A DNA stretch of 36,255 nt from a virus. Taxonomy: Duplodnaviria; Heunggongvirae; Uroviricota; Caudoviricetes. A program made the position numbers and the translations under genes. Below are positions 2,232 through 34,748 of this stretch, in pieces. The number at the start of each line of letters is the position of its first letter. Positions within the stretch are counted from its first letter, which is position 1. The stretch spans positions 1 to 36,255 of IMG/VR virus record IMGVR_UViG_2563366853_000005. One strand, given 5' to 3'. A model generated the notes under the pieces. That model was not told the DNA's origin, ran no database searches, and saw only the letters and a program-made list of their open reading frames with translations.

Positions 2232-3341
2232 TCACTCTGTTTCCGCTATCCATTCCGGGATTTTTGCCTCAAGCTCAAGCTGCGTGGTAAAGCCGCTGTT
2301 ATCAATGGTGTGCTCGGCTTTTGCAATGATCCAGTCCTGATTATCAATCTCGCTTTTAAATCCTGTTACCGTGCCATGCATTTCGGGGTAGAGTTCTGCA
2401 CGTCCACGCGCCAGCGTGATGGAGAATGATGCGGCTCCGCGTTGTAGTTGCTGCCACTTTGCCGCCGCTGCGCGTCTTGCTGCCTGCTCGTTCTGATAAG
2501 TCTTGCGTAACACAAACACATTGCCTTCCGCGCCTTCCATATAATCACCTTCACGGCTGCTGCTTTTCTCCTTTTTGGGTTTTGGCGGTTTACGGCGTTT
2601 CACGCTGACTTTTTTCTTTTTCCCGTAATTAAGATCAAGCCAGTAGGCGCGTACCCCCGTATACGCCTCGCGGTCAGCAATGCGGAACTGATGGCGATCG
2701 CCGCTGCTGCGTGTAATGGCGAACGAGGGCAACGGCTGGCCCTGTGCGTTCACGCCACCACCTGGCATGATGAATAACAGATTACCGCTTTTTACCGTGG
2801 TGATTGCGCCCAGCATTTCCGCCATGCGCGTAAGGAAGGACATGTCGCTTTCTTCGGTCTGGTCGGCGTGGTCGATTTCGATATCCATCAGCATTTCGCT
2901 GATTTGCGGTTTCAGGCCGTACCGATGAGCGATGGCGGATACCACACGCTCAACGGTCACATCATGCCAGGACACCTCACGTTTAACGTTAAATTCATCC
3001 CGAAAATCTGCGCTTCTGGCTGAAACAGTCAGCCTGTCCGGCGGTCCTTCGTGAGCGATTTCATCAACAATGTAAGTGCCTTTTTCTGTCAGCGGTTCTC
3101 CTTTCCAGCCAATGAGAACCGTCAGGCGCGCGCCCCGTGGCGGTAGCTGCAACTGACCATCCGCATCATCCAGCGTGATGGTGAGCTGGTCCGCGTCAAA
3201 TCCCCGGTTGTCGGTCAGTGACAGGCTCATCAGGCGCTCTGCCACGCCTGACAGCGTTTTACCCTCCGCGAGAATATCAAAATCCGGCATTTTCACGGGG
3301 TCTGTGCCCTGACTGAGCAATTGCATGGTGGTGTCGGTCAT
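2232..3341 (-). CDS. D: tail protein gpD
   Basis: Similarity to P2 gpD along the ORF; start chosen at the ATG at 3341 (MTDTTMQLLSQ...), preceded by GGGAGGGAACAG; the ORF track's longer 413-aa version begins upstream with no RBS. Confidence 0.85.
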   Translation of the reverse strand: MTDTTMQLLSQGTDPVKMPDFDILAEGKTLSGVAERLMSLSLTDNRGFDADQLTITLDDADGQLQLPPRGARLTVLIGWKGEPLTEKGTYIVDEIAHEGPPDRLTVSARSADFRDEFNVKREVSWHDVTVERVVSAIAHRYGLKPQISEMLMDIEIDHADQTEESDMSFLTRMAEMLGAITTVKSGNLLFIMPGGGVNAQGQPLPSFAITRSSGDRHQFRIADREAYTGVRAYWLDLNYGKKKKVSVKRRKPPKPKKEKSSSREGDYMEGAEGNVFVLRKTYQNEQAARRAAAAKWQQLQRGAASFSITLARGRAELYPEMHGTVTGFKSEIDNQDWIIAKAEHTIDNSGFTTQLELEAKIPEWIAETE

Positions 3342-3498
3342 CTGTTCCCTCCCTGTGCGGCATGGTCGCATGTGCGTGCGGAGGGGGTTACTGCTTTTTG
3401 TTGTCGCCGTGGCGGGAGAACGTCGCAGGGGTGAGATTACGCGCGTGGTGGGTGATGATTGTTGCCGAATCATTTAACGGATACAAGGGGCTGAAGCT
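3342..3498. promoter_or_regulatory. divergent intergenic region between D and FI (left junction of the inverted tail block; presumed late promoter region)
   Basis: 157 bp between two divergent late-gene starts; no perfect TGT-N12-ACA Ogr dyad found by eye. Confidence 0.35.
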
Positions 3499-4683
3499 AT
3501 GAGTGAAACTCGTTTTCATGGTGCCCGTGTTACGGAAAGTACCGACCTGGTAACAGCGATTAATGATGTTGATTCCAGTGTTATCGGTATCGTGGCAACG
3601 GCGGATGATGCGGATGCGGAGCTGTTCCCGCTGAACAAGCCCACACTGCTGACCCGCGTCAATGACGTGCTGGGAAAATGCGGAACAACGGGGACGCTTT
3701 ATCGTGCGCTTAAGGCCATCGCAGACCAGGTGAGCACAAAGGTGATCGTCGTTCGCGTGGCTGAACACAAAGAAGAAGACGGAAAAACGCAGGATCAACT
3801 GGTTATCGGTGGTTCTGAATCTGACGGCAGCTATACGGGGATGTATGCGCTGCTTGTTGCAGAGCAGGATGAAAGCATCGGATACCGTCCGCGTATTCTG
3901 GCCGCGCCGGAGCTGGACACGGAGGCGGTAACAAAATCCCTGTGCGTGATTGCAGGTAAACTGCGCGCGTTTGTGTATGCCTCATGTCACGGCTGTAACA
4001 CGATGGCTGAGGCGATTACCTACCGCCAGAAATTCAACGAACGTGAGGTGATGCTCTTATGGCCGGACTTCATCGCCTACAACCCGAAAAGTGGCAAAAA
4101 CGAAACGTTCCCCGCGCCTGCCTATGCGTGCGGCCTTCGTGCGTACATTGACCATGAGCAGGGCTGGCACAAATCGCTGTCCAACGTTCCGGTTAAAAAT
4201 GTGCTGGGGATGTCCAGTCATGTGTTCTGGTCGTTGCAGGCCGAAGACAGTGATGCCAACAGCCTCAACAACAAAGAAATCACGACCATTATTCGTCGCA
4301 ACGGGTTCCGCTTCTGGGGCAACCGCACACCGGAAACGAACGCCTACATCTTTGAGGTGTATACCCGAACCGCACAGGTGCTGGCTGATTCAATTGCGGA
4401 AGCGCAGTTTGAAACCATCGACAGTCCACTGACGCCTGCGAACGTGAAAGATGTTATCAGTGCCATCAGGGCAAAACTGGATTCACTGGTTACTGCCGGG
4501 AAACTGATTGGGGCGTCGTGCTGGTATGACGTGGTGGATAACGGCACCACGAATTTACGTCAGGGGCGCGTGCGTATTCGCTACAAATATACGCCTGTTC
4601 CCCCGCTGGAAGACATGGAGCTTTACCAGTCGTTTACTGATGAATTCTTTGGTCCCGCATTTGCGGTGCTGGGAGGTGCCTGA
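3499..4683 (+). CDS. FI: contractile tail sheath protein gpFI
   Basis: 394-aa ORF with the expected size and similarity to P2 FI tail sheath; stop overlaps the FII start (TGATG). Confidence 0.9.
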   Translation: MSETRFHGARVTESTDLVTAINDVDSSVIGIVATADDADAELFPLNKPTLLTRVNDVLGKCGTTGTLYRALKAIADQVSTKVIVVRVAEHKEEDGKTQDQLVIGGSESDGSYTGMYALLVAEQDESIGYRPRILAAPELDTEAVTKSLCVIAGKLRAFVYASCHGCNTMAEAITYRQKFNEREVMLLWPDFIAYNPKSGKNETFPAPAYACGLRAYIDHEQGWHKSLSNVPVKNVLGMSSHVFWSLQAEDSDANSLNNKEITTIIRRNGFRFWGNRTPETNAYIFEVYTRTAQVLADSIAEAQFETIDSPLTPANVKDVISAIRAKLDSLVTAGKLIGASCWYDVVDNGTTNLRQGRVRIRYKYTPVPPLEDMELYQSFTDEFFGPAFAVLGGA

Positions 4684-5195
4684 TGGCTGTACCAAAACAT
4701 CTTCGCTTTTTTACGCTGTTTGTGGATGGTGAAAACGAAGTGGGTAAGGTGACGTCCGTCACTCTGCCTAAGCTGACGCGCAAAACCGACAGCTACCGGG
4801 GTGGTGGCATGATGGGTGCGGTAAGTATTGATCTCGGTCTGGACGACTCCGCGCTTGATGCGAGCTTTGTCATGGGGGGCGCAGTTCGTGCGCTGTTCCT
4901 TAAGTATGGCGGCACGATTGACGGCACGCTGCTGCGTTTTGCGGGTGAATACTACACCGATGCAGAAAGCGACCTGTATGAAGTCGAAATGCGCGGACGT
5001 GTGACGGAAATTGATATGGGGGAAGCCAAACAGGGCGAAGCCACATCACACACTTACGCCATTAAAAACACCTACTACAAGCTGAGTGTTAACGATCGCC
5101 CGTTGTGGGAGATTGACCTGCTGAACTTCATTTACCGGAAGGACGGCAAGGACATTGTGCCCGATCGCATCCGTTCCGCGCTCGGGCTTGGCTGA
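4683..5195 (+). CDS. FII: tail tube protein gpFII
   Basis: 170-aa ORF, translationally coupled to FI; matches P2 FII in size and position. Confidence 0.9.
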   Translation: MAVPKHLRFFTLFVDGENEVGKVTSVTLPKLTRKTDSYRGGGMMGAVSIDLGLDDSALDASFVMGGAVRALFLKYGGTIDGTLLRFAGEYYTDAESDLYEVEMRGRVTEIDMGEAKQGEATSHTYAIKNTYYKLSVNDRPLWEIDLLNFIYRKDGKDIVPDRIRSALGLG

Positions 5196-24779: not shown

Positions 24780-26144
24780 ATGAATATAACTACTAATCAG
24801 AATGGTTTTGAGAATGGTTTTGATATTACATCTGACATATTTAATCGTAAGACATTATATGATCAAATGATACGGCTTATTATTAATGCTCCTGACTCAA
24901 ATTTGGTTTTTGCGTTAGATGATATATGGGGTAGCGGTAAAACATCATTTGTTAAGATGTTAAAATCAGAATTAGAATTAACTAATAGTGAATATATAGA
25001 TGTTGTTTATTTCGATGCATTTGAAAATGATTATCAATCAGATCCATTTATTTCAATATCATCTGAACTATATAATTTACTAAAACACAGAGGAGTAGAG
25101 GCCGAAGATGTAGCTGATCGCATTATTAAAACTGGTAAGAAAATAGGTGCAAAAATATTAATCGGAGGTGCAAAGGTAGCTATTACAACCCTGACAGCAG
25201 GTGTTGTGAATGGTTCTGCTCTTGATGAGGCAGGAAAAACAGTTAGCGATTCCATTAATAGTGAGTTAGAGTCTTTTGTTGAAGAGAAAATAAAATCCAT
25301 GGAGCAGGAAAAAAACTCAATTGCTGACTTTAAAAAAGCTTTAGAAGAAATATATACAAATACAAAGAGAAAAACCTTGATTATTATTGATGAACTTGAT
25401 CGAGCCCGCCCAGATTATTCTCTAGAGCTATTGGAAAAAATTAAGCATCTTTTTTCTGTGAAAGGTATGGTTTTCTTATTGGTAATGAATCGAGAGCAAT
25501 TTGAAAAGGGAATTGCATATAAATATGGTGATATCAATACTGGTCTGTACTTGAATAAATTTATTCATTATTGGTTTTCTTTGCCCAAAATAAATATGTA
25601 TGACTCTATGGTGTTACAAGCATCTAACAAAACAACGATTACAACGTATATTAAAAAAACTCTACAACAGAATCACTCTCTAGGTATTAATACAGATGGT
25701 GCTTTTGTAAGAGTCTTATCATGCTTGATTGAAACCAATAATTGCTCGCTGCGAGAAGTTGAACGATGTATTTCAACTATGCTTGTAGTGGATAATCATA
25801 CGTGTATAGCGAATAATGATGATAATTATTATATGATTGCATTAGCATTGGTTTGTTTCTTGAAAGTAACTTCTCCAGATATGTTAAATCGACTACTTAA
25901 GAAGGAAATGTCTTCTGAAGAGATATTAGAATTACTTAATATAAAATCTGATTATTTTTCATCAAAGACGGAAATTAAATTGCTTAAAGAACTATTGGAT
26001 TATTATTACATCGATAAAGAAACATTAAAACTATTACGTAATGAAAAGGGAAGTTATGTTCAGCGTATAGAAGGTGATTTTGCGTTTGAATATAACCATA
26101 TCTTTAATATTTCCACATCAATAGCTAATATGACTATAAAATAA
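24780..26144 (+). CDS. KAP-family P-loop NTPase (PifA-like), candidate anti-phage defence protein
   Basis: Walker A within DDIWGSGKTSF (aa 47-57, the WGSGK(T/S) form typical of KAP NTPases), Walker B LIIIDELDRA (aa about 199-208), a hydrophobic stretch GAKILIGGAKVAITTLTAGVV between them; GGAG RBS 5 nt upstream; visibly AT-rich relative to flanking phage genes. Confidence 0.8.
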   Translation: MNITTNQNGFENGFDITSDIFNRKTLYDQMIRLIINAPDSNLVFALDDIWGSGKTSFVKMLKSELELTNSEYIDVVYFDAFENDYQSDPFISISSELYNLLKHRGVEAEDVADRIIKTGKKIGAKILIGGAKVAITTLTAGVVNGSALDEAGKTVSDSINSELESFVEEKIKSMEQEKNSIADFKKALEEIYTNTKRKTLIIIDELDRARPDYSLELLEKIKHLFSVKGMVFLLVMNREQFEKGIAYKYGDINTGLYLNKFIHYWFSLPKINMYDSMVLQASNKTTITTYIKKTLQQNHSLGINTDGAFVRVLSCLIETNNCSLREVERCISTMLVVDNHTCIANNDDNYYMIALALVCFLKVTSPDMLNRLLKKEMSSEEILELLNIKSDYFSSKTEIKLLKELLDYYYIDKETLKLLRNEKGSYVQRIEGDFAFEYNHIFNISTSIANMTIK

Positions 26145-26364: not shown

Positions 26365-29127
26365 TTATTTGTTCCCACTCTTTACTCCTCTTCGCAGTAG
26401 GTCAGCTTTGTGGCAGGCGCGTTCGGTTGTTTCACAGATTCTTTGTGTGTGCTCTGTGTCGTGAATGGCGCGCAGCATGTCAGAAAGCACAGTAACGGGG
26501 GTTTTCATGGTGTTCTGGTCCTGCTGAAGTGTGGATGCCAGGCGTGCGGCGGCTTTGGGGTCTGATGCCCCCAGCTGTTCCAGATAGCTGGCGACCGGGT
26601 TATGGCGGATCTCCGTGCTGCTTACGCCGTGATTACGGCTCAGGCGCTGCCAGAGCTGCGTGATTCGGCTGTCCGGGCGGGTATCCGGTTTGCGTACAAT
26701 TTCAAATCCCTGCGGTGAAATGATGCTGCCGTCAACGTACAGACTGCCGCCCCGTAACAGGTGCTGCATCTGCTGTTCACCGATATGCAGGCCGAGAGAT
26801 TCAGCGGACTCCCGCCATTCTTTAGCGAGTAATTCGTGGTTATCAGGCAAAGGCCGCTGCTGTTTGCGGCTCTGTGTCCAGCTCTGCATTTCATCACTGC
26901 TGTTTTTTGCCTGTTTGTCACGCAGCGAACGCATCAGCGCCCGGCGTTCGTGCCGTTTCAGTGAGCGCATCCATTCATCCACATCAACGCCGTCAGGAAG
27001 CTGCGGCCACGGTGCTGGCCGTTCTTCCGGCTGTTCTGTCCCGTTGTTGTCCGTTTCCTGTACACGGGGACAGTTATTGCCACGAGTCCAAGGGGCGGCA
27101 GGGCCGCCCTGAAGGTCAAAACCATTTTCGCGGGCGCTGTCTTCCGCTTCCGGTTTGCGTCTTACCAGCTTCCAGTTATCCGGATGCGTGCACACACGGG
27201 AGGATTCCCCGATGAGTGGTGACCAGATCCCGTAAATCTGTACGCTCTGTTCGCCGTAATCGTTCAGCTCATCGGCGAGGTCGTAGGCGGTGCGAATCAG
27301 GTAGTCTTTGCGTGGAACAAGTACGCCGCCCTGTTTCTCTATGTAGGTGGCAAAACATCCTGCATCAGCGGCAGCGAGTACCGCATCCATTGCGTCATCC
27401 TTCAGCCGTTGCGGGCCTTCCGGGTTGCGTGCCATCTGGCTGGCAAGGCGGCGGAGTTCACGCCACACCTGACGGGAGGGGATGCCAAAGAACTGGAACT
27501 GGCGGACCCGGTGAAGGCGTGCCCAACCGATGGCGCGCTCCACGCTCTCGGCCATTGATTTTCCGGTTTCGTGGTCAACGCGTGGTTTGCCTGTTTTCTG
27601 GTCGATGCCATCCACGGCGCGGCTGTCCAGGTTTTTTCCGATGTAGGTGGCGATGTAGCTGGTTGGCGTGCCTTTTGAGCCGTCGACATACTCCGCCTTA
27701 AAGCGCGGAGTAATATCATCGCCCAGCTCGTGACGATCTTCCTGAATGGCAATATCGCGGGTGTGGGACACAATGGTGTCGATTTCTTCCGGATGAGCAA
27801 AGACCATCATATGCCAGTGCACGGTGCCGTCATGGTGAGGCTCCACCGTGCGGATGCCATACCAGCGCAGGCCGTCGCGGTTCAGTTTCTTGCGGACCGC
27901 TGCAAAAAACGTGTTAACCAGGTAATCGCTGGAGTCGCGCATGGTGGCCCCGTTCCATTTGGGATTCGGATGACCGTTCTCTGTTGTGGCGTGGTATTTT
28001 GACGGGCAGGTGACAGTCAGAAACACCGCTTTGTCGCCACGGGCTTCGGCCAGAAGTTCCAGCCCCTTCATGGTGGCCATCATTTCTGCCTTACGGTGAA
28101 CCGGGTTACTTACTCCCGCGTAATACACTGTCTCGAGATCAATCGTGAACCCGTCTTCGTTTTCCAGCATGAAACTTTTCAGGAAATCGCGTGTTTTCTC
28201 GCGCTGTGCGCGAAACTCGCTTAACGCGTCCTGGCTCAGATAGGGTGATGTTTTTCTGGAAACCAGACAGGCGGCGCGGAGTTGTTCTTCTCTCCACTCG
28301 CAACGTAACAGCCACAGTTTGCGTTTCCACCATTCCGCACAGGTCAGGCGAAGGATTGCGCCCGGCAGCAGCTCCGTGTCCGGTTCGTTCCTCCGGTCTT
28401 TATCTGTTGTCAGTGCGTCATAATGTGGAGGCATGATGTGCAGGTGTAACGCCATGCGGGCCAGCATCTGATACGCCTTCAGCGTTACATCCATGGTCAG
28501 TTCGCCATCGGTCGCGCCAAAGCCATCGCAGAGTTTTTCGAAGGTGCTGCTGAACATCGCCGCCGTCATGGTGGCCAGCGTCTGTATCTGGTGTTTGTTG
28601 AGCTGCGGCAGGTAAAGCAAATCGTCCAGGCGTTCGCGTCCGGCAAGGGAGCGATAACCCGGTGTCAGCCAGTGTCCGTCAGTGCGATCCAGACGTTCGA
28701 ATATTTTGCGCAGGGTTCCGCGTGCATAGCGTTCCGCCTGCCAGCTCTTTTTGCCTTTCCGGCGATCGGCTTCCTGTTTTTTGCGCAGGAAGGAGAGGTG
28801 GCGAATAAGTGGATCGCGCAGATAGGACGGCAGCAGGCGCAGCGAGGCCATGGCTTCATCCACCGCGCCGCGTGCCTGTTTTCTGGCGTCTCCTGCCAGT
28901 GCGATGGTTTTGTCCTGTTTTTCCTGTGCGTCCAGGCTTTTATTAATCAGGTTGCCCAGCGGCGTGGCGGAGAACGCCGCATCAGCCATTTTCTGGCGGC
29001 GCTCGTTCTCTGCCCGGTAGGCATCCAGCCAGGAGGAAAGCACGGATTCAGGAGCGGGGATCCCCGTTCCTTCACGCCCTACTGCGTGGCGCGGTTGTTG
29101 CCAGTCCCTGATGTACTCTGTCGTCAT
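26365..29127 (-). CDS. A: replication initiation protein gpA (rolling-circle HUH endonuclease); start uncertain, C-terminal extension relative to P2 A
   Basis: Blocks shared with P2 A including VEPHHDGTVHWHMMVF (P2: VEPHHDGTPHWHMML), FLTVTCPSKYH (P2: FITLTAPSKYH), YIATYIGKNLD (P2: YIAKYISKNID). Confidence 0.85.
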   Translation of the reverse strand: MTTEYIRDWQQPRHAVGREGTGIPAPESVLSSWLDAYRAENERRQKMADAAFSATPLGNLINKSLDAQEKQDKTIALAGDARKQARGAVDEAMASLRLLPSYLRDPLIRHLSFLRKKQEADRRKGKKSWQAERYARGTLRKIFERLDRTDGHWLTPGYRSLAGRERLDDLLYLPQLNKHQIQTLATMTAAMFSSTFEKLCDGFGATDGELTMDVTLKAYQMLARMALHLHIMPPHYDALTTDKDRRNEPDTELLPGAILRLTCAEWWKRKLWLLRCEWREEQLRAACLVSRKTSPYLSQDALSEFRAQREKTRDFLKSFMLENEDGFTIDLETVYYAGVSNPVHRKAEMMATMKGLELLAEARGDKAVFLTVTCPSKYHATTENGHPNPKWNGATMRDSSDYLVNTFFAAVRKKLNRDGLRWYGIRTVEPHHDGTVHWHMMVFAHPEEIDTIVSHTRDIAIQEDRHELGDDITPRFKAEYVDGSKGTPTSYIATYIGKNLDSRAVDGIDQKTGKPRVDHETGKSMAESVERAIGWARLHRVRQFQFFGIPSRQVWRELRRLASQMARNPEGPQRLKDDAMDAVLAAADAGCFATYIEKQGGVLVPRKDYLIRTAYDLADELNDYGEQSVQIYGIWSPLIGESSRVCTHPDNWKLVRRKPEAEDSARENGFDLQGGPAAPWTRGNNCPRVQETDNNGTEQPEERPAPWPQLPDGVDVDEWMRSLKRHERRALMRSLRDKQAKNSSDEMQSWTQSRKQQRPLPDNHELLAKEWRESAESLGLHIGEQQMQHLLRGGSLYVDGSIISPQGFEIVRKPDTRPDSRITQLWQRLSRNHGVSSTEIRHNPVASYLEQLGASDPKAAARLASTLQQDQNTMKTPVTVLSDMLRAIHDTEHTQRICETTERACHKADLLRRGVKSGNK

Positions 29128-29133
29128 ACTGAT

Positions 29134-29499
29134 TTACTTCGTCATACCGTTGAGGGTGTCACGGCAAACGGCAGCCAGCCGCTGAATTTCCAGCACGGTG
29201 TCTTCTGTGTCGGCATGGCGATGTGTGATGCGGATGCTGTCGGCAATCACATCGACGATTGCAGAGGATGGGCGCTGGTAAATGCCAATAACGGACGGGG
29301 TGCCACCTTCAATGCGGTAAAGCCTGTAATTTCCCTCGTGGCTGTCAATCATGTAGCGACCATCAATAACAATCTTTCCGTCAGCGAGCTGCGGTACAGG
29401 CAGGGATTTCAGGTACATGTCATAACGATCACGCACGCGAGCGGCAAGATCACGTTCTGTGTTGAGCAGATATTCAAGAAAGTCGTTGGCGAGAATCAT
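29134..29499 (-). CDS. hypothetical early protein (121 aa)
   Basis: ORF immediately upstream of and co-oriented with A. Confidence 0.55.
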   Translation of the reverse strand: MILANDFLEYLLNTERDLAARVRDRYDMYLKSLPVPQLADGKIVIDGRYMIDSHEGNYRLYRIEGGTPSVIGIYQRPSSAIVDVIADSIRITHRHADTEDTVLEIQRLAAVCRDTLNGMTK

Positions 29500-29571
29500 T
29501 GCGGCAATCCTCTTGTTACAGATGTGCGAAGGCCTCCCGCCGCAAGGTGCAGGAAAGGCCCGGAACAGGAA

Positions 29572-29802
29572 TTAATGGAGTTTGTTTTGCTGCTGGATGA
29601 GCTTTTGAAGCTCGCGCAGATCATCTGCCAGATAGCTGAAAACAGAGGCGGAATAGCTGTTCGATAGTGCGTGACTGCGTTCATGCAGCATATTGATGTG
29701 CATGATATGCGCGACGCGGAATGCGCGGAAAAGTCTGCGGTTGATTTCAGCCTGGATGTGACGACGCTCCGCGATAGCGCGGTGCTGTTTGCGGTTTGCC
29801 AT
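29572..29802 (-). CDS. hypothetical small basic protein (76 aa)
   Basis: GAAGAGG RBS about 9 nt upstream of the ATG at 29802; the longer overlapping 207-aa ORF in another frame was rejected. Confidence 0.5.
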   Translation of the reverse strand: MANRKQHRAIAERRHIQAEINRRLFRAFRVAHIMHINMLHERSHALSNSYSASVFSYLADDLRELQKLIQQQNKLH

Positions 29803-29848
29803 GGTGTTTGGCCTCTTCGTTTGTGAGTTTTTGGATACTCACCAACCA

Positions 29849-30045
29849 GAGTTGAGAATCTCGGGGTGGCGAGACGTACGGGGTTCTCAACACCGGCAAA
29901 CGAAGAAACCGGCCCGACCGAAGTCGGCCCCGTACGCCCCACCATAATTCTGATGCGAAAAAGACGTGGCAATACAGTACGCACAAAAAAACCGCTGGCG
30001 CGGTTGTGCGCTTCGTTTGTCAGCAGGTTGAGAATCCCGGCACCC
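29849..30045. repeat. cluster of GTTGAGAA(T/C)C-CGG motif copies (two direct, one inverted) in a structured non-coding region
   Basis: GTTGAGAATCTCGGGG at 29851-29866; inverted copy GGGGTTCTCAAC at 29882-29893; direct copy GTTGAGAATCCCGG at 30027-30040; CTTCGTTTG flanks the second and third copies in inverted orientation. Confidence 0.6.
29985..30005 (-). terminator. intrinsic terminator (minus strand)
   Basis: Stem AACCGC / GCGGTT (29990-30005) with loop TGGC; on the minus strand followed by a U-run (A-run 29985-29991 on plus). Confidence 0.5.
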
Positions 30046-30141
30046 GTTTTATGAGGTGCAGCAGAAATGTAACCTGACTGATTGCGGCATGGCAAGCGGT
30101 TTTTTTGTGAGAACGGCATACTAAAAAAATCCTGATACTGC

Positions 30142-30166
30142 TCCGGCCAGCGATTTTCACTGGCCG
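30142..30166 (-). other. 8-bp GC-rich hairpin just downstream of the SPFH gene
   Basis: CCGGCCAG-cgattttca-CTGGCCGG; a T-run on the minus strand lies about 12 nt further on. Confidence 0.45.
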
Positions 30167-30173
30167 GGTTTAA

Positions 30174-31004
30174 TTACTTCACCGGAACAAACGGAACAGC
30201 GGTGTTGCTGGTCATGTATTGCGGCAGCGTGCCGTTCCATTTGTTGATTGCTTCCAGCTCCATAACGCCGGGATTCTGGCGCAGAGCTTCACCGCGTAAA
30301 CGAATGGCGTCGGCTTCAGCCTGGGCTTTTGTGCGAATGGCATCAGCCTGTCCGGCAGCTTCTGCGCGCAACATGTTGGCTTCAGCTTCGCGTTGCTTGA
30401 CTTCCTGTTCGCGTTGCAGGGTTTTCTGGTTTGCCGTGACTTTGGCATTAATGCTGTCGATAACGGTTGACGGGTACTCCGGCTTACCCACATATGAGAG
30501 GCTCATTACCTGAATACCGATAGGTGTCATTTCCTCCTGAATGTCTTTAAGAGCTGCATCCAGTAGTTCAGATTTCCCGCCGTCGATAAATTTGTCGGTG
30601 GTCATTTTGCTGGCCAGTCGGTTGAGTGCATCGGCGATCTTCTGGCGCAGGTCAGTGTCGGTAATGTCATCCACGCCTTTGCGGTAGGTCTGAAACACTG
30701 TAGTAACTTTGGATGGATCAACCTTGTAGGCCACACCGATGTGATAGCCGATGGTTGTGCCGTCACTCATCTGGAAGCTGAACGGCTCATCGTAGGTCTT
30801 CATTTGTTTGAAGGTCGGGAAGATGTAAACCTCGGTATTCCAGCCAGTCCAGTAGCGGCCAACGCCAACCACTTCGCCGACGCCTTTGTCGTCGCCCAGT
30901 TTGTTGACTTTGATGCCCACATTACCTGGCTCAACGCGATCGCAACCAACCAGCAGGATGGCGGCAAAAAGCGGGATAATCTGAAAGAGTTTGAATTTCT
31001 TCAT
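30174..31004 (-). CDS. SPFH / band-7 (stomatin-prohibitin-HflK/C-like) lipoprotein
   Basis: Lipoprotein signal MKKFKLFQIIPLFAAILLVG-C; SPFH-like core followed by an Ala/Glu-rich coiled coil (QREQEVKQREAEANMLRAEAAGQADAIRTKAQAEADAIRLRGEA); ATG overlaps the stop of the upstream small membrane protein gene (ATGA). Confidence 0.75.
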   Translation of the reverse strand: MKKFKLFQIIPLFAAILLVGCDRVEPGNVGIKVNKLGDDKGVGEVVGVGRYWTGWNTEVYIFPTFKQMKTYDEPFSFQMSDGTTIGYHIGVAYKVDPSKVTTVFQTYRKGVDDITDTDLRQKIADALNRLASKMTTDKFIDGGKSELLDAALKDIQEEMTPIGIQVMSLSYVGKPEYPSTVIDSINAKVTANQKTLQREQEVKQREAEANMLRAEAAGQADAIRTKAQAEADAIRLRGEALRQNPGVMELEAINKWNGTLPQYMTSNTAVPFVPVK

Positions 31005-31204
31005 TGTTTGATTTCCTTGATGTACTTACTGAAAAGGCGAACAACGCCTGCCGGGTACAGCATGGCAATGAAAATGCCCAGCAATACCAGGAAGGAGCTG
31101 TCTGATGAAATCATTCGGGGGAGTAGTCCTGCATACAGAATGAGAGAAACGAGGACGCATACCAGCGCCCACATGTATGCGCGAAACCAGGTCTTTTTGT
31201 TCAT
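31001..31204 (-). CDS. small two-TM membrane protein (67 aa), partner of the SPFH gene
   Basis: AAAGGA RBS 8 nt upstream; hydrophobic segments WALVCVLVSLILYAGLL and FLVLLGIFIAMLYPAGVV; translationally coupled to the SPFH gene. Confidence 0.6.
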   Translation of the reverse strand: MNKKTWFRAYMWALVCVLVSLILYAGLLPRMISSDSSFLVLLGIFIAMLYPAGVVRLFSKYIKEIKQ

Positions 31205-31215
31205 ATCACGGTCCT

Positions 31216-31515
31216 TTACTGGTTAAGGAAGAAATCAAAAACCTTGTCGATGCGTTGCAGTAGCTCTCGTTGCATTGCTTCCGGTGTTTCCGGTTCGCCA
31301 GGTGAACCCAGCGTTGCGCAGAAATCAGCGATTTCATGATGGAGCGTCAGGCGAATGGCTGGAGCCATGGTTCTGGCGTGCTCCAGCTCATCCAGCAGTG
31401 CCAGCACAGCAGACGGCGAGAGCATTGCGCGAAACGCCAGTAATTTTTGATGCGTTGCCATTCGTTGCAGGTCAGTCGCCAGTTCGCGTAGCTTCTGGTG
31501 GTTGATGGTGCTCAT
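31216..31515 (-). CDS. hypothetical early protein (99 aa)
   Basis: ORF in the tightly packed early operon; 4-nt overlap with the upstream gene. Confidence 0.55.
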   Translation of the reverse strand: MSTINHQKLRELATDLQRMATHQKLLAFRAMLSPSAVLALLDELEHARTMAPAIRLTLHHEIADFCATLGSPGEPETPEAMQRELLQRIDKVFDFFLNQ

Positions 31516-31757
31516 GCTCTGGCTTCCTTCAGTAGCTGGTTAAACATGCGGGTGAGTGGGTTGCTGCACCCGAACGGCATCGGGTTTACCTGGTAAGAGA
31601 ACCGACCGCCTGTTTTGCGTTCTTCTCTGATGACTAAGCCGTCGCGCCAGAGTCGGCGTAACTCCGCATTAATGGTTGTGGTTGGGGTATTCAGTGCTGC
31701 GGCGATTTCTCCACCGCTACAACCCGGATTGGCGGCGATGTAGTCCAGAATGGTCAT
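31512..31757 (-). CDS. small winged-helix-like DNA-binding protein (81 aa)
   Basis: Segment GGEIAAALNTPTTTINAELRRLWRDGLV resembles a winged-helix recognition region; operon position. Confidence 0.55.
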   Translation of the reverse strand: MTILDYIAANPGCSGGEIAAALNTPTTTINAELRRLWRDGLVIREERKTGGRFSYQVNPMPFGCSNPLTRMFNQLLKEARA

Positions 31758-34226: not shown

Positions 34227-34748
34227 TTAGTTGCCTCTGTTGTTTCTGAGTTGGTTCAGTTTTGAGCTTCTGCCTGTATAAACTCGCTTACCGTTAATGG
34301 TCTGGCAGTCTTCTTTATTAGCTGGAGAGAACTTCCTTTTCTGGCGGTCATACGTCCAGTAACTTTTCCAGTTGTGCCATTCTGGGGGCTCGTGCTCTGG
34401 TAGCTCATCAGCCAACTTGTCCCACTCTTTGGCGTTAAACCACCATACTCCGTCTGAGTTTTCATCTTCCGGGTTTGTGCGCGTCTTGTGTCCCGGCATT
34501 TGACCGCGATGAATGGCTACGCGCAGTGCAGATTTTGTTAGCCCAATATATGCCGCGCCTTTTTCCAGAGAGCAAAGCCCGGCGATCGGACCATCCAGCC
34601 GTAAAGTCGCTCCTTTTTTGTAGGAACGCTTTTTCTTGTTTTCTTCGTGTTCGTCGTCGTTGGCGGCATCAATGGATCCGCTGAGTGTGTCACTTTCCTG
34701 AAGTGGTTGGTGGTCAGATAACTCTTTATCGGCAATGAAGTCCCGCAT
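34227..34748 (-). CDS. cox: Cox/Apl/AlpA-type excisionase-like HTH regulator with an acidic N-terminal extension (173 aa)
   Basis: HTH segment AAYIGLTKSALRVAIHRGQMPG followed by a Trp-rich region (GVWWFNAKEWDKL) as in excisionase-family proteins; AGAGGA RBS 7 nt upstream; divergent from the C repressor gene. Confidence 0.6.
   Translation of the reverse strand: MRDFIADKELSDHQPLQESDTLSGSIDAANDDEHEENKKKRSYKKGATLRLDGPIAGLCSLEKGAAYIGLTKSALRVAIHRGQMPGHKTRTNPEDENSDGVWWFNAKEWDKLADELPEHEPPEWHNWKSYWTYDRQKRKFSPANKEDCQTINGKRVYTGRSSKLNQLRNNRGN

Follow-up and report, generated by a model that had tools for sequence, protein, structure and literature searches.

A P88-like (Xuanwuvirus, Peduoviridae) prophage of Escherichia coli encodes, within its early operon, a 276-amino-acid (aa) lipoprotein with an SPFH/Band-7 domain together with a 67-aa partner protein containing two transmembrane (TM) segments. 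The prophage makes up the whole stretch of DNA analyzed here (the window; 36,255 nucleotides (nt), positions 1 to 36,255 of IMG/VR record IMGVR_UViG_2563366853_000005). With nearly as much belief as doubt, we read this gene pair as a self-contained periplasmic SPFH microdomain module, which phages would use during lytic growth to organize or enclose a conserved component of the host inner membrane. The pair had first been noticed in an original prediction made from the letters of the window. The observation was confirmed as real, and the interpretation attached to it was partly supported, as detailed below.

Two overlapping genes form an optional insert in the early operon

The module consists of the following features:

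31001..31204, minus strand: two-TM partner gene, 67 aa (open reading frame, ORF)
30174..31004, minus strand: SPFH/Band-7 lipoprotein gene, 276 aa (ORF)
31001..31004, minus strand: ATGA overlap of the partner TGA stop with the SPFH ATG start, indicating translational coupling (sequence)
30142..30166, minus strand: GC-rich hairpin with an 11-bp stem (-23.4 kcal/mol, z -3.5; RNA fold), just past the SPFH stop and inside the insert
30110..31215, minus strand: optional insert made up of the partner gene, the SPFH gene and the hairpin, located between an ead/Ea22-like gene and isrK (EDL933 alignment)

The ORF list and the sequence bore out the coordinates, strand and ATGA overlap originally given for both genes, and an AAGGA Shine-Dalgarno-like sequence could be read upstream of the partner start as well as the SPFH start. 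The placement of the pair in an early operon extending from cox to gene A was likewise correct: the minus strand encodes cox (34227..34748), a series of small early genes, the pair and also the replication gene A (26365..29127). The 1.2-kb region of the pair was 100% identical to that of strain JNE082640, in which the prophage adjoins dmsA.

Closer examination of related prophages revealed that the pair is a clean insertion. The P2-like prophage of EDL933 aligned to positions 29134-30109 and 31216-31757 of the window, with 18 bp replacing 1,106 bp. The same site was occupied elsewhere by genes for helix-turn-helix/DNA-binding proteins (phrog_323) or by a 48-aa ORF; these alternative inserts are uninformative on the function of the pair. 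Among 5,426 complete E. coli genomes, 1,299 contained the flanking backbone, with a coverage of at least 80% in 874 cases, and the P88-type pair was present in 141-145 E. coli genomes, which corresponds to approximately 11-17% of the backbones. The original prediction was therefore right to place the pair outside the canonical early genes of P2-like phages, as a minority of backbones carry the insert, the site is empty in EDL933 and other genes are found there elsewhere. A gap of only 11 bp separates the upstream gene from the insert, and a crude consensus scan found no promoter-like site upstream on the insert's strand. For these two reasons the pair is probably transcribed with the early lytic genes and not in the resting lysogen.

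The 276-aa protein has the architecture of cage-forming SPFH proteins

The SPFH/Band-7 domain that had been proposed for the 276-aa protein was found in a hidden Markov model (HMM) search with Pfam PF01145 well above the cut-off (E 1.8e-30, 106.7 bits against 23.6), the match covering residues 23-209 and profile positions 2-176 of 176. The protein also matched phrog_200 ('lipoprotein') with an E value of 8.5e-112. Its N-terminus (MKKFKLFQIIPLFAAILLVGC followed by DR) fits the bacterial lipoprotein pattern, as judged by a PROSITE-type pattern. The lipobox PLFAAILLVGC (LLVGC core) ends in Cys21, which lies within the range of positions 15-35 and is preceded by a basic N-terminal region and followed by Asp22 at position +2 and Arg at +3. 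A lipoprotein anchor, as originally proposed, is thus predicted at Cys21. The sequence C-DR(V/A) followed the lipobox in 95 of the 99 enterobacterial family members possessing one, and some SPFH lineages have a plain N-terminal hydrophobic anchor without Cys. Because Asp at +2 is near-universal among the enterobacterial members with a lipobox, other members have plain anchors lacking Cys, and fusions with the partner (see below) have a compatible topology, we infer that Cys21 is lipid-modified and that the protein is retained in the inner membrane with its SPFH domain facing the periplasm.

The C-terminal Ala/Glu coiled coil of the original prediction corresponds to a coiled-coil-like helix spanning residues 179-243 (65 residues), which is rich in Ala, Gln, Arg and Glu. 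An AlphaFold2 monomer model, built with an alignment of 96 family members, reached a pLDDT (predicted local distance difference test) of 92.9 and contained a β-rich SPFH domain, the helix 179-243, a short helix (residues 245-255) and a flexible tail. This tail carries the conserved motif KW-x-G-x-LP, in which W256 is invariant and G258 as well as P261 are present in at least 90% of the 96 family members. When the model was compared with the PDB using Foldseek, full-length matches were obtained to prohibitin, HflK/C, erlin and stomatin (E 6e-14 to 1e-11, 260-300 columns), followed by weaker matches to QmcA (E 3e-8), flotillin and the major vault protein. The predicted protein has the full architecture of the cage-forming members, i.e. 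anchor, SPFH domain, long helix, short helix and C-terminal tail. Its nearest solved or curated relatives by sequence are HflK, HflC and prohibitin-2, with NCBIfam scores of 24.3 bits for HflC (cut-off 134.4) and 23.5 bits for HflK (cut-off 159.4) that did not reach the equivalog cut-offs. Judged by these sequence matches, the 276-aa protein is a full-architecture SPFH scaffold and, because its scores are far below the family cut-offs, not an orthologue of HflK or HflC.

The partner is a small two-helix membrane protein

The 67-aa ORF is a genuine gene, as documented by its PHROG match (phrog_1130 'membrane protein', E 1.3e-22), by homologues in 174 related protein clusters and by a proportion of nonsynonymous differences (pN) to homologues well below that of synonymous differences (pS). 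The description of its product as a small two-TM protein was upheld: two hydrophobic segments were present at about residues 9-28 and 38-58, and the charge distribution followed the positive-inside pattern with a net charge of +3 at either end and a neutral loop. Based on these features the partner is predicted to be an N-in/C-in hairpin with a short periplasmic loop, and in 22 aligned homologues this loop contained the conserved motif P-x-[ML]-[IV]-S-[SA]-x-[SD]. The check for an NfeD-like partner that went with the original prediction was negative: no Pfam family at E <= 0.01 and no NCBIfam family matched the protein, hence it has no NfeD domain and is not NfeD-like.

The partner and the SPFH protein are linked across phages and bacteria

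Besides P88-like prophages, the SPFH gene recurs in phiP27 and Shiga toxin 2 (Stx2) phages, P1-like phage-plasmids, Fraca (Hendrixvirinae), the N4-like Erwinia phage Pastis and the SSU5-like Cyrano. In six phage types (P88, phiP27, P1-like, Fraca, Pastis and Cyrano) the SPFH gene was directly preceded by a partner ORF with the loop motif, and the overlap of the two genes was also observed in phiP27, the P1-like phage, Pastis and Fraca. In phiP27, the P1-like phage (MH422554) and Pastis the partner had not been annotated; its ORF is intact in all three, encodes 62-78 aa and runs into the start codon of the SPFH gene (coordinates are those of the extracted loci):

phiP27 3304..3492, minus strand: unannotated partner ORF
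MH422554 3809..4045, minus strand: unannotated partner ORF
Pastis 3765..3968, minus strand: unannotated partner ORF

In the rV5-like phage GAP31 the partner lies one gene away from the SPFH gene, and some phages lack it or have other small proteins in its place. A similar arrangement was observed in bacteria, for which we sampled 80 loci from species-representative genomes. An HMM of the partner gave a match immediately before the SPFH gene in 56 of these 80 loci, and the partner was recognized by eye in about seven more, which amounts to approximately 63 of the 77 assessable loci, the remaining three having too little upstream sequence to judge. Kapaibacterium and Myxococcaceae had no partner. 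When the neighbors of the 80 loci were clustered, no conserved third gene emerged; only the partner recurred, and other shared genes reflected lineage-specific synteny. In addition, at least 16 of the 150 best representatives were in-frame fusions consisting of the two-TM domain, a basic linker, the lipobox and the SPFH domain. P0001 (347 aa) of the P1-like lineage is also a partner-SPFH fusion with an internal lipobox. Such fusions may be processed by signal peptidase II, and P0001 may instead stem from a sequencing frameshift. Adjacency, overlap and in-frame fusions argue for a functional link between the two genes.

With tblastn, relatives of the SPFH protein were detected in 384 of 50,697 phage records, which include temperate phages as well as N4-like, rV5-like, Felix O1-like, LUZ24-like, phiCbK-like, crAss-like, jumbo and Lak phages and Myxococcus phage Mx1. 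We take the lineages in this latter list to be virulent. An exhaustive search of 1.84 billion representatives yielded 221 SPFH family clusters at E <= 1e-30, and a scan of viral contigs returned only near-identical relatives (at least 92% identity) that added no diversity. Among the four phages from such lineages whose SPFH neighborhoods were inspected (Ab22, GAP31, phiEa104 and phiCbK; all regarded as belonging to virulent lineages), no neighbor was annotated as a lysis gene. Named neighbors mostly encoded enzymes of DNA or RNA metabolism, and most neighbors in Ab22 and phiCbK were hypothetical.

Bacterial genomes carrying the family belonged to Rhodanobacteraceae, Leptospira, Sutterella, Cupriavidus, Myxococcaceae and others. 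Roughly two dozen loci of the Dyella group (Dyella, Rhodanobacter and relatives; match at about positions 4001-4850 of each stretch) shared the same neighbors, namely BlaI/BlaR1-like, hemerythrin-like and ribonucleotide-reductase-like genes, as named by eye from the sequence. This context seems to consist of ordinary cellular and not of phage genes. The module therefore seems to be of cellular origin, with a function independent of any one phage, and the recurrent neighbors point to a role in the cell outside prophages.

The mature SPFH protein is under very strong purifying selection

The mature SPFH protein was 96-98% identical among the P2-like, phiP27-like and P1-like copies and about 80-99% identical across phage types, and signal peptides outside P88 were 33-55% identical. 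The ratio of nonsynonymous to synonymous divergence (dN/dS) of the mature protein was 0.008-0.06 at a synonymous divergence (dS) of up to 0.4-1.0, a constraint that we judge to be unusually strong for a phage accessory gene. Such a low ratio fits many self-contacts, a conserved client, or both. For the partner, dN/dS was 0.17-0.45 where dS could be measured. Compared with P88, synonymous divergence was 0.02 in the partner gene and 0.19 in the SPFH gene, and this uneven distribution suggests a recombination joint within the module.

Comparison with known systems

The same two genes are found at the same operon position in phage P88 (NC_026014 / KP063541) as gp11 (membrane protein) and gp12 (lipoprotein, putative SPFH domain). 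The DNA is 95.6% identical over 1.2 kb and the SPFH protein 98.9% identical, with no difference of substance, and no function for gp11 or gp12 is recorded in the P88 annotation and the literature searched. The pair is thus already known from GenBank, both proteins are contained in PHROGs 200 and 1130, and SPFH proteins are known as a kind.

Like E. coli HflK/HflC, which act with FtsH, the phage protein combines the SPFH fold with a long helix and a C-terminal tail, and it would share their periplasmic face. In contrast to the two HflK/HflC paralogues, each of which has an N-terminal TM helix, the phage module contains one SPFH gene whose product begins with a lipobox signal peptide and is about 17% identical to them, and the neighbor of this gene encodes the 67-aa two-TM protein without an SPFH domain. 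The cages of eukaryotic prohibitin, erlin and stomatin represent the top full-length structural matches, and in the model, too, the SPFH domain is followed by a long and then a short helix, but sequence identity to them is 14-18%, they reside in other membranes with other clients, and the phage anchor is a lipid. QmcA of E. coli faces the cytoplasm, whereas the phage SPFH protein is predicted to face the periplasm. SPFH-NfeD operons (E. coli QmcA-YbbJ, PDB 8z5g; Pyrococcus stomatin PH1511/PH1510) resemble the phage module in pairing an SPFH gene with a small membrane partner; they differ from it in that the phage partner is a two-helix hairpin lacking an NfeD/OB-fold domain. Pasteurella multocida PM0222, a possible homologue, is likewise an SPFH protein encoded by the prophage of a Gram-negative pathogen, but has been described as a vesicle-located TLR1/2 agonist (PMC9872710).

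Apart from the work on PM0222, the literature searched contained no study on the function of SPFH proteins from phages. A lipid-anchored, periplasm-facing SPFH protein with a two-TM partner in place of NfeD, its fusions or its function were not found described in the searchable literature, and a 2026 paper considers the reason for the presence of the SPFH protein in phages unclear (PMC13239085).

Backbone RNAs and a second variable site

The region downstream of the module contains the following features:

29985..30059, minus strand: isrK-like small RNA (Rfam RF01394, 62 bits against a gathering score of 50), a backbone element outside the module
29862..29949, minus strand: C4 antisense RNA (Rfam match), directly downstream of the SPFH gene region
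29572..29802, minus strand: gene for a 76-aa 'derepression'-family protein, following the isrK and C4 RNAs

isrK is kept in prophages without the insert and is thus a backbone element. Promoter-like hexamers precede both the isrK and the C4 RNA, those before isrK being located at 30095-30066, and the terminator scan placed a terminator-like site at 30005-29990, the 3' end of isrK. The original prediction had the module end in its own hairpin and terminator. The hairpin at 30142-30166 is real and inside the insert, but it was not among the calls of the terminator scan and its U-run begins about 11 nt beyond the stem; it may be an mRNA stabilizer or a weak terminator and is not a canonical intrinsic terminator. 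The second element, at 29985-30005, belongs to isrK and not to the module, since the Rfam match to isrK extends over 29985-30059.

The block of isrK, C4 and the derepression gene (29572-30095, minus strand) resembles the arrangements of P1 immI (C4-ant) and of the Gifsy-1 isrK-antirepressor region. It is embedded in the P2-like early operon as part of the backbone and is also present without the SPFH insert. A 207-aa ORF at 29496..30119 (minus strand) is almost certainly not genuine, as it runs across the matches to the isrK and C4 RNAs; RefSeq has no annotation at these positions.

Between the portal gene and gene A, presumably the site at which P2 carries its tin/old accessory genes, the window encodes a KAP-family P-loop NTPase (454 aa, 24780..26144, plus strand; PF07693, E 1.8e-38) that matched the PADLOC candidate defense family PDC-S20 (E 8e-76). 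In JNE082640 the corresponding position downstream of gene A is occupied by ParM and partition genes, and this location therefore represents a second variable site of the prophage.

Proposed function and alternatives

In the mechanism we propose, the SPFH protein would be exported, lipidated at Cys21 and held in the inner membrane by Asp at +2, with its domain toward the periplasm. There it would assemble into a ring or cage and thereby enclose a patch of the membrane, similar to HflK/C, prohibitin, erlin and stomatin. The coupled partner would supply the transmembrane part and touch the SPFH protein on the periplasmic side via its conserved loop. Made together with the early lytic genes, the pair would condition the host inner membrane by enclosing or organizing a conserved component. 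A role in lytic growth is suggested because expression is probably early and relatives occur in lineages regarded as virulent, and FtsH would be the leading candidate for the enclosed component because the closest characterized relatives scaffold FtsH-type proteases.

Several observations weigh against this interpretation. Retention by Asp at +2 is a rule established for E. coli, and how Arg at +3 influences it is uncertain; in many of the distant homologues, position +2 is occupied by Ser, Thr or Gly. The cage is extrapolated from a monomer model and from homologues. Nothing points to FtsH specifically, and the NCBIfam scores for HflC and HflK are about 24 bits against cut-offs of 134-159. 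Phage types with 80-98% identity in the mature SPFH protein share only 21-48% identity in the partner, so that any contact between the two proteins must rest on few conserved positions. The partner is missing or replaced in Kapaibacterium, Myxococcaceae, LUZ24-like phages, phiEa104 and phiCbK. A weak or non-sigma-70 promoter of the insert's own could have escaped the consensus scan. Finally, the HflK/C-like protein of a Pasteurella prophage, a possible homologue, was reported in outer-membrane vesicles (PMC9872710), which would be a misfit with strict inner-membrane retention.

In a wider form of the proposal, which we consider unlikely, the module would be an uncharacterized periplasmic SPFH nanocage that, with its two-helix partner, is present in many unrelated phages and some bacteria and, in infected cells, captures or insulates a conserved inner-membrane machine such as FtsH or a component of secretion or respiration. 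If this were true, the nanocage would be a general device for host takeover or membrane protection, and neither a defense system nor a lysis gene.

The original prediction linked the pair to FtsH through its control of lysis-lysogeny regulators. As a specific version of the proposed mechanism, a phage SPFH ring could mimic, join or displace HflK/C around the periplasmic domains of FtsH and thereby alter the turnover of membrane proteins, LpxC, sigma-32 or phage regulators. Prohibitin and HflK/C scaffold FtsH-type AAA proteases (PMC12048511), HflC and HflK were the best NCBIfam and PDB sequence matches, prohibitin and HflK/C were at the top of the fold search, and the predicted periplasmic side is the same as that of HflK/C. 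A universal, conserved host target would also fit the very low dN/dS and the spread over unrelated phages. Set against this are the scores far under the HflK and HflC cut-offs, the presence of one SPFH gene instead of an HflK/HflC pair, a lipid anchor in place of the N-terminal TM helix of HflK/C, and a dedicated partner. The single reported contact between HflK and FtsH is made by HflK Arg191 (PMC12048511), a residue that could not be reliably placed on the phage protein because of a weak alignment with 17% identity. Furthermore, Dyella keeps the pair in its recurrent chromosomal context, so action via HflK/C would be unnecessary, and a choice between lysis and lysogeny does not arise in phages regarded as virulent. 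With the family present in 384 phage records that include such lineages, and in the Dyella chromosomal context, the lysis-lysogeny rationale is weakened, and we regard modulation of FtsH as plausible but, as a specific claim, improbable.

Superinfection exclusion, in which the anchored periplasmic protein would block genome entry or the tail-tip enzymes of later phages, appears quite unlikely. Lipoprotein exclusion factors are a known class, with analogues of such a function in T4 Imm/Sp and the lipoprotein Ltp of Streptococcus phage TP-J34, and an early, membrane-located accessory gene shared by temperate and virulent-type phages would be compatible with it. In a Vi01-like phage an SPFH-domain gene, possibly from another SPFH family, adjoins a gene annotated as superinfection exclusion protein (PMC3220722), and a paper of 2026 speculates that the SPFH protein acts in adsorption or in the entry of DNA (PMC13239085). 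Exclusion proteins are usually tailored to the entry route and fast-evolving, however, and the explanation fits poorly because the mature SPFH protein (96-98% identical, with housekeeping-like constraint) is extremely conserved across phages with different entry routes. The homologues in the recurrent Dyella context, the absence of a defense-model match for the SPFH protein and the improbable expression in the lysogen likewise argue against it.

A function in lysogenic conversion, with changes of the envelope or release of vesicles leading to serum resistance, adhesion or innate immune signaling, is very improbable. A precedent exists in PM0222 of Pasteurella multocida, a prophage SPFH protein that is reported to be present in outer-membrane vesicles, to activate TLR1/2 and to attenuate virulence when deleted (PMC9872710), and the pair is also carried by Stx-converting phages of pathogenic E. 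coli. PM0222 may be unrelated to the family, however, and the position inside the early lytic operon without a promoter detected for the pair, the frequent occurrence in phages of environmental bacteria and in lineages regarded as virulent, and Asp at +2, which argues against targeting to the outer membrane or vesicles, speak against such a role. That the pair depolarizes or disrupts the membrane upon infection by another phage (abortive infection) is hardly credible: the membrane location, the variable presence among prophages and a marginal match of the partner to PADLOC PDC-M18B (E 0.0078) are compatible with it, but a PADLOC-DB v2 scan of the pair and its neighbors gave no meaningful hit, with no match for the SPFH protein and no other than this marginal one for the partner, many carriers are regarded as virulent, homologues occur in the recurrent Dyella context, purifying selection is extreme and housekeeping-like, no promoter-like site for expression in a lysogen was found, and the classical defense hotspot of the prophage, with the KAP NTPase of PDC-S20, lies elsewhere, all of which weakens the defensive role originally considered.

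Implications

Among the protein families of phages that lack a known role, the PHROG 200 SPFH family ranks with the larger ones, its carriers being as different as P2-like prophages, crAss-like phages and jumbo phages. The partner, which is often unannotated and sometimes fused, the predicted periplasmic placement at the inner membrane and selection at a housekeeping level make the question of its function testable. Within E. coli, the presence or absence of the pair as a clean 1.1-kb insertion/deletion in P88-like prophages provides a natural isogenic comparison. If the client of the proposed periplasmic microdomain module were FtsH or another core membrane machine, the family would represent a widespread and so far unrecognized way in which phages handle the membrane of their hosts.

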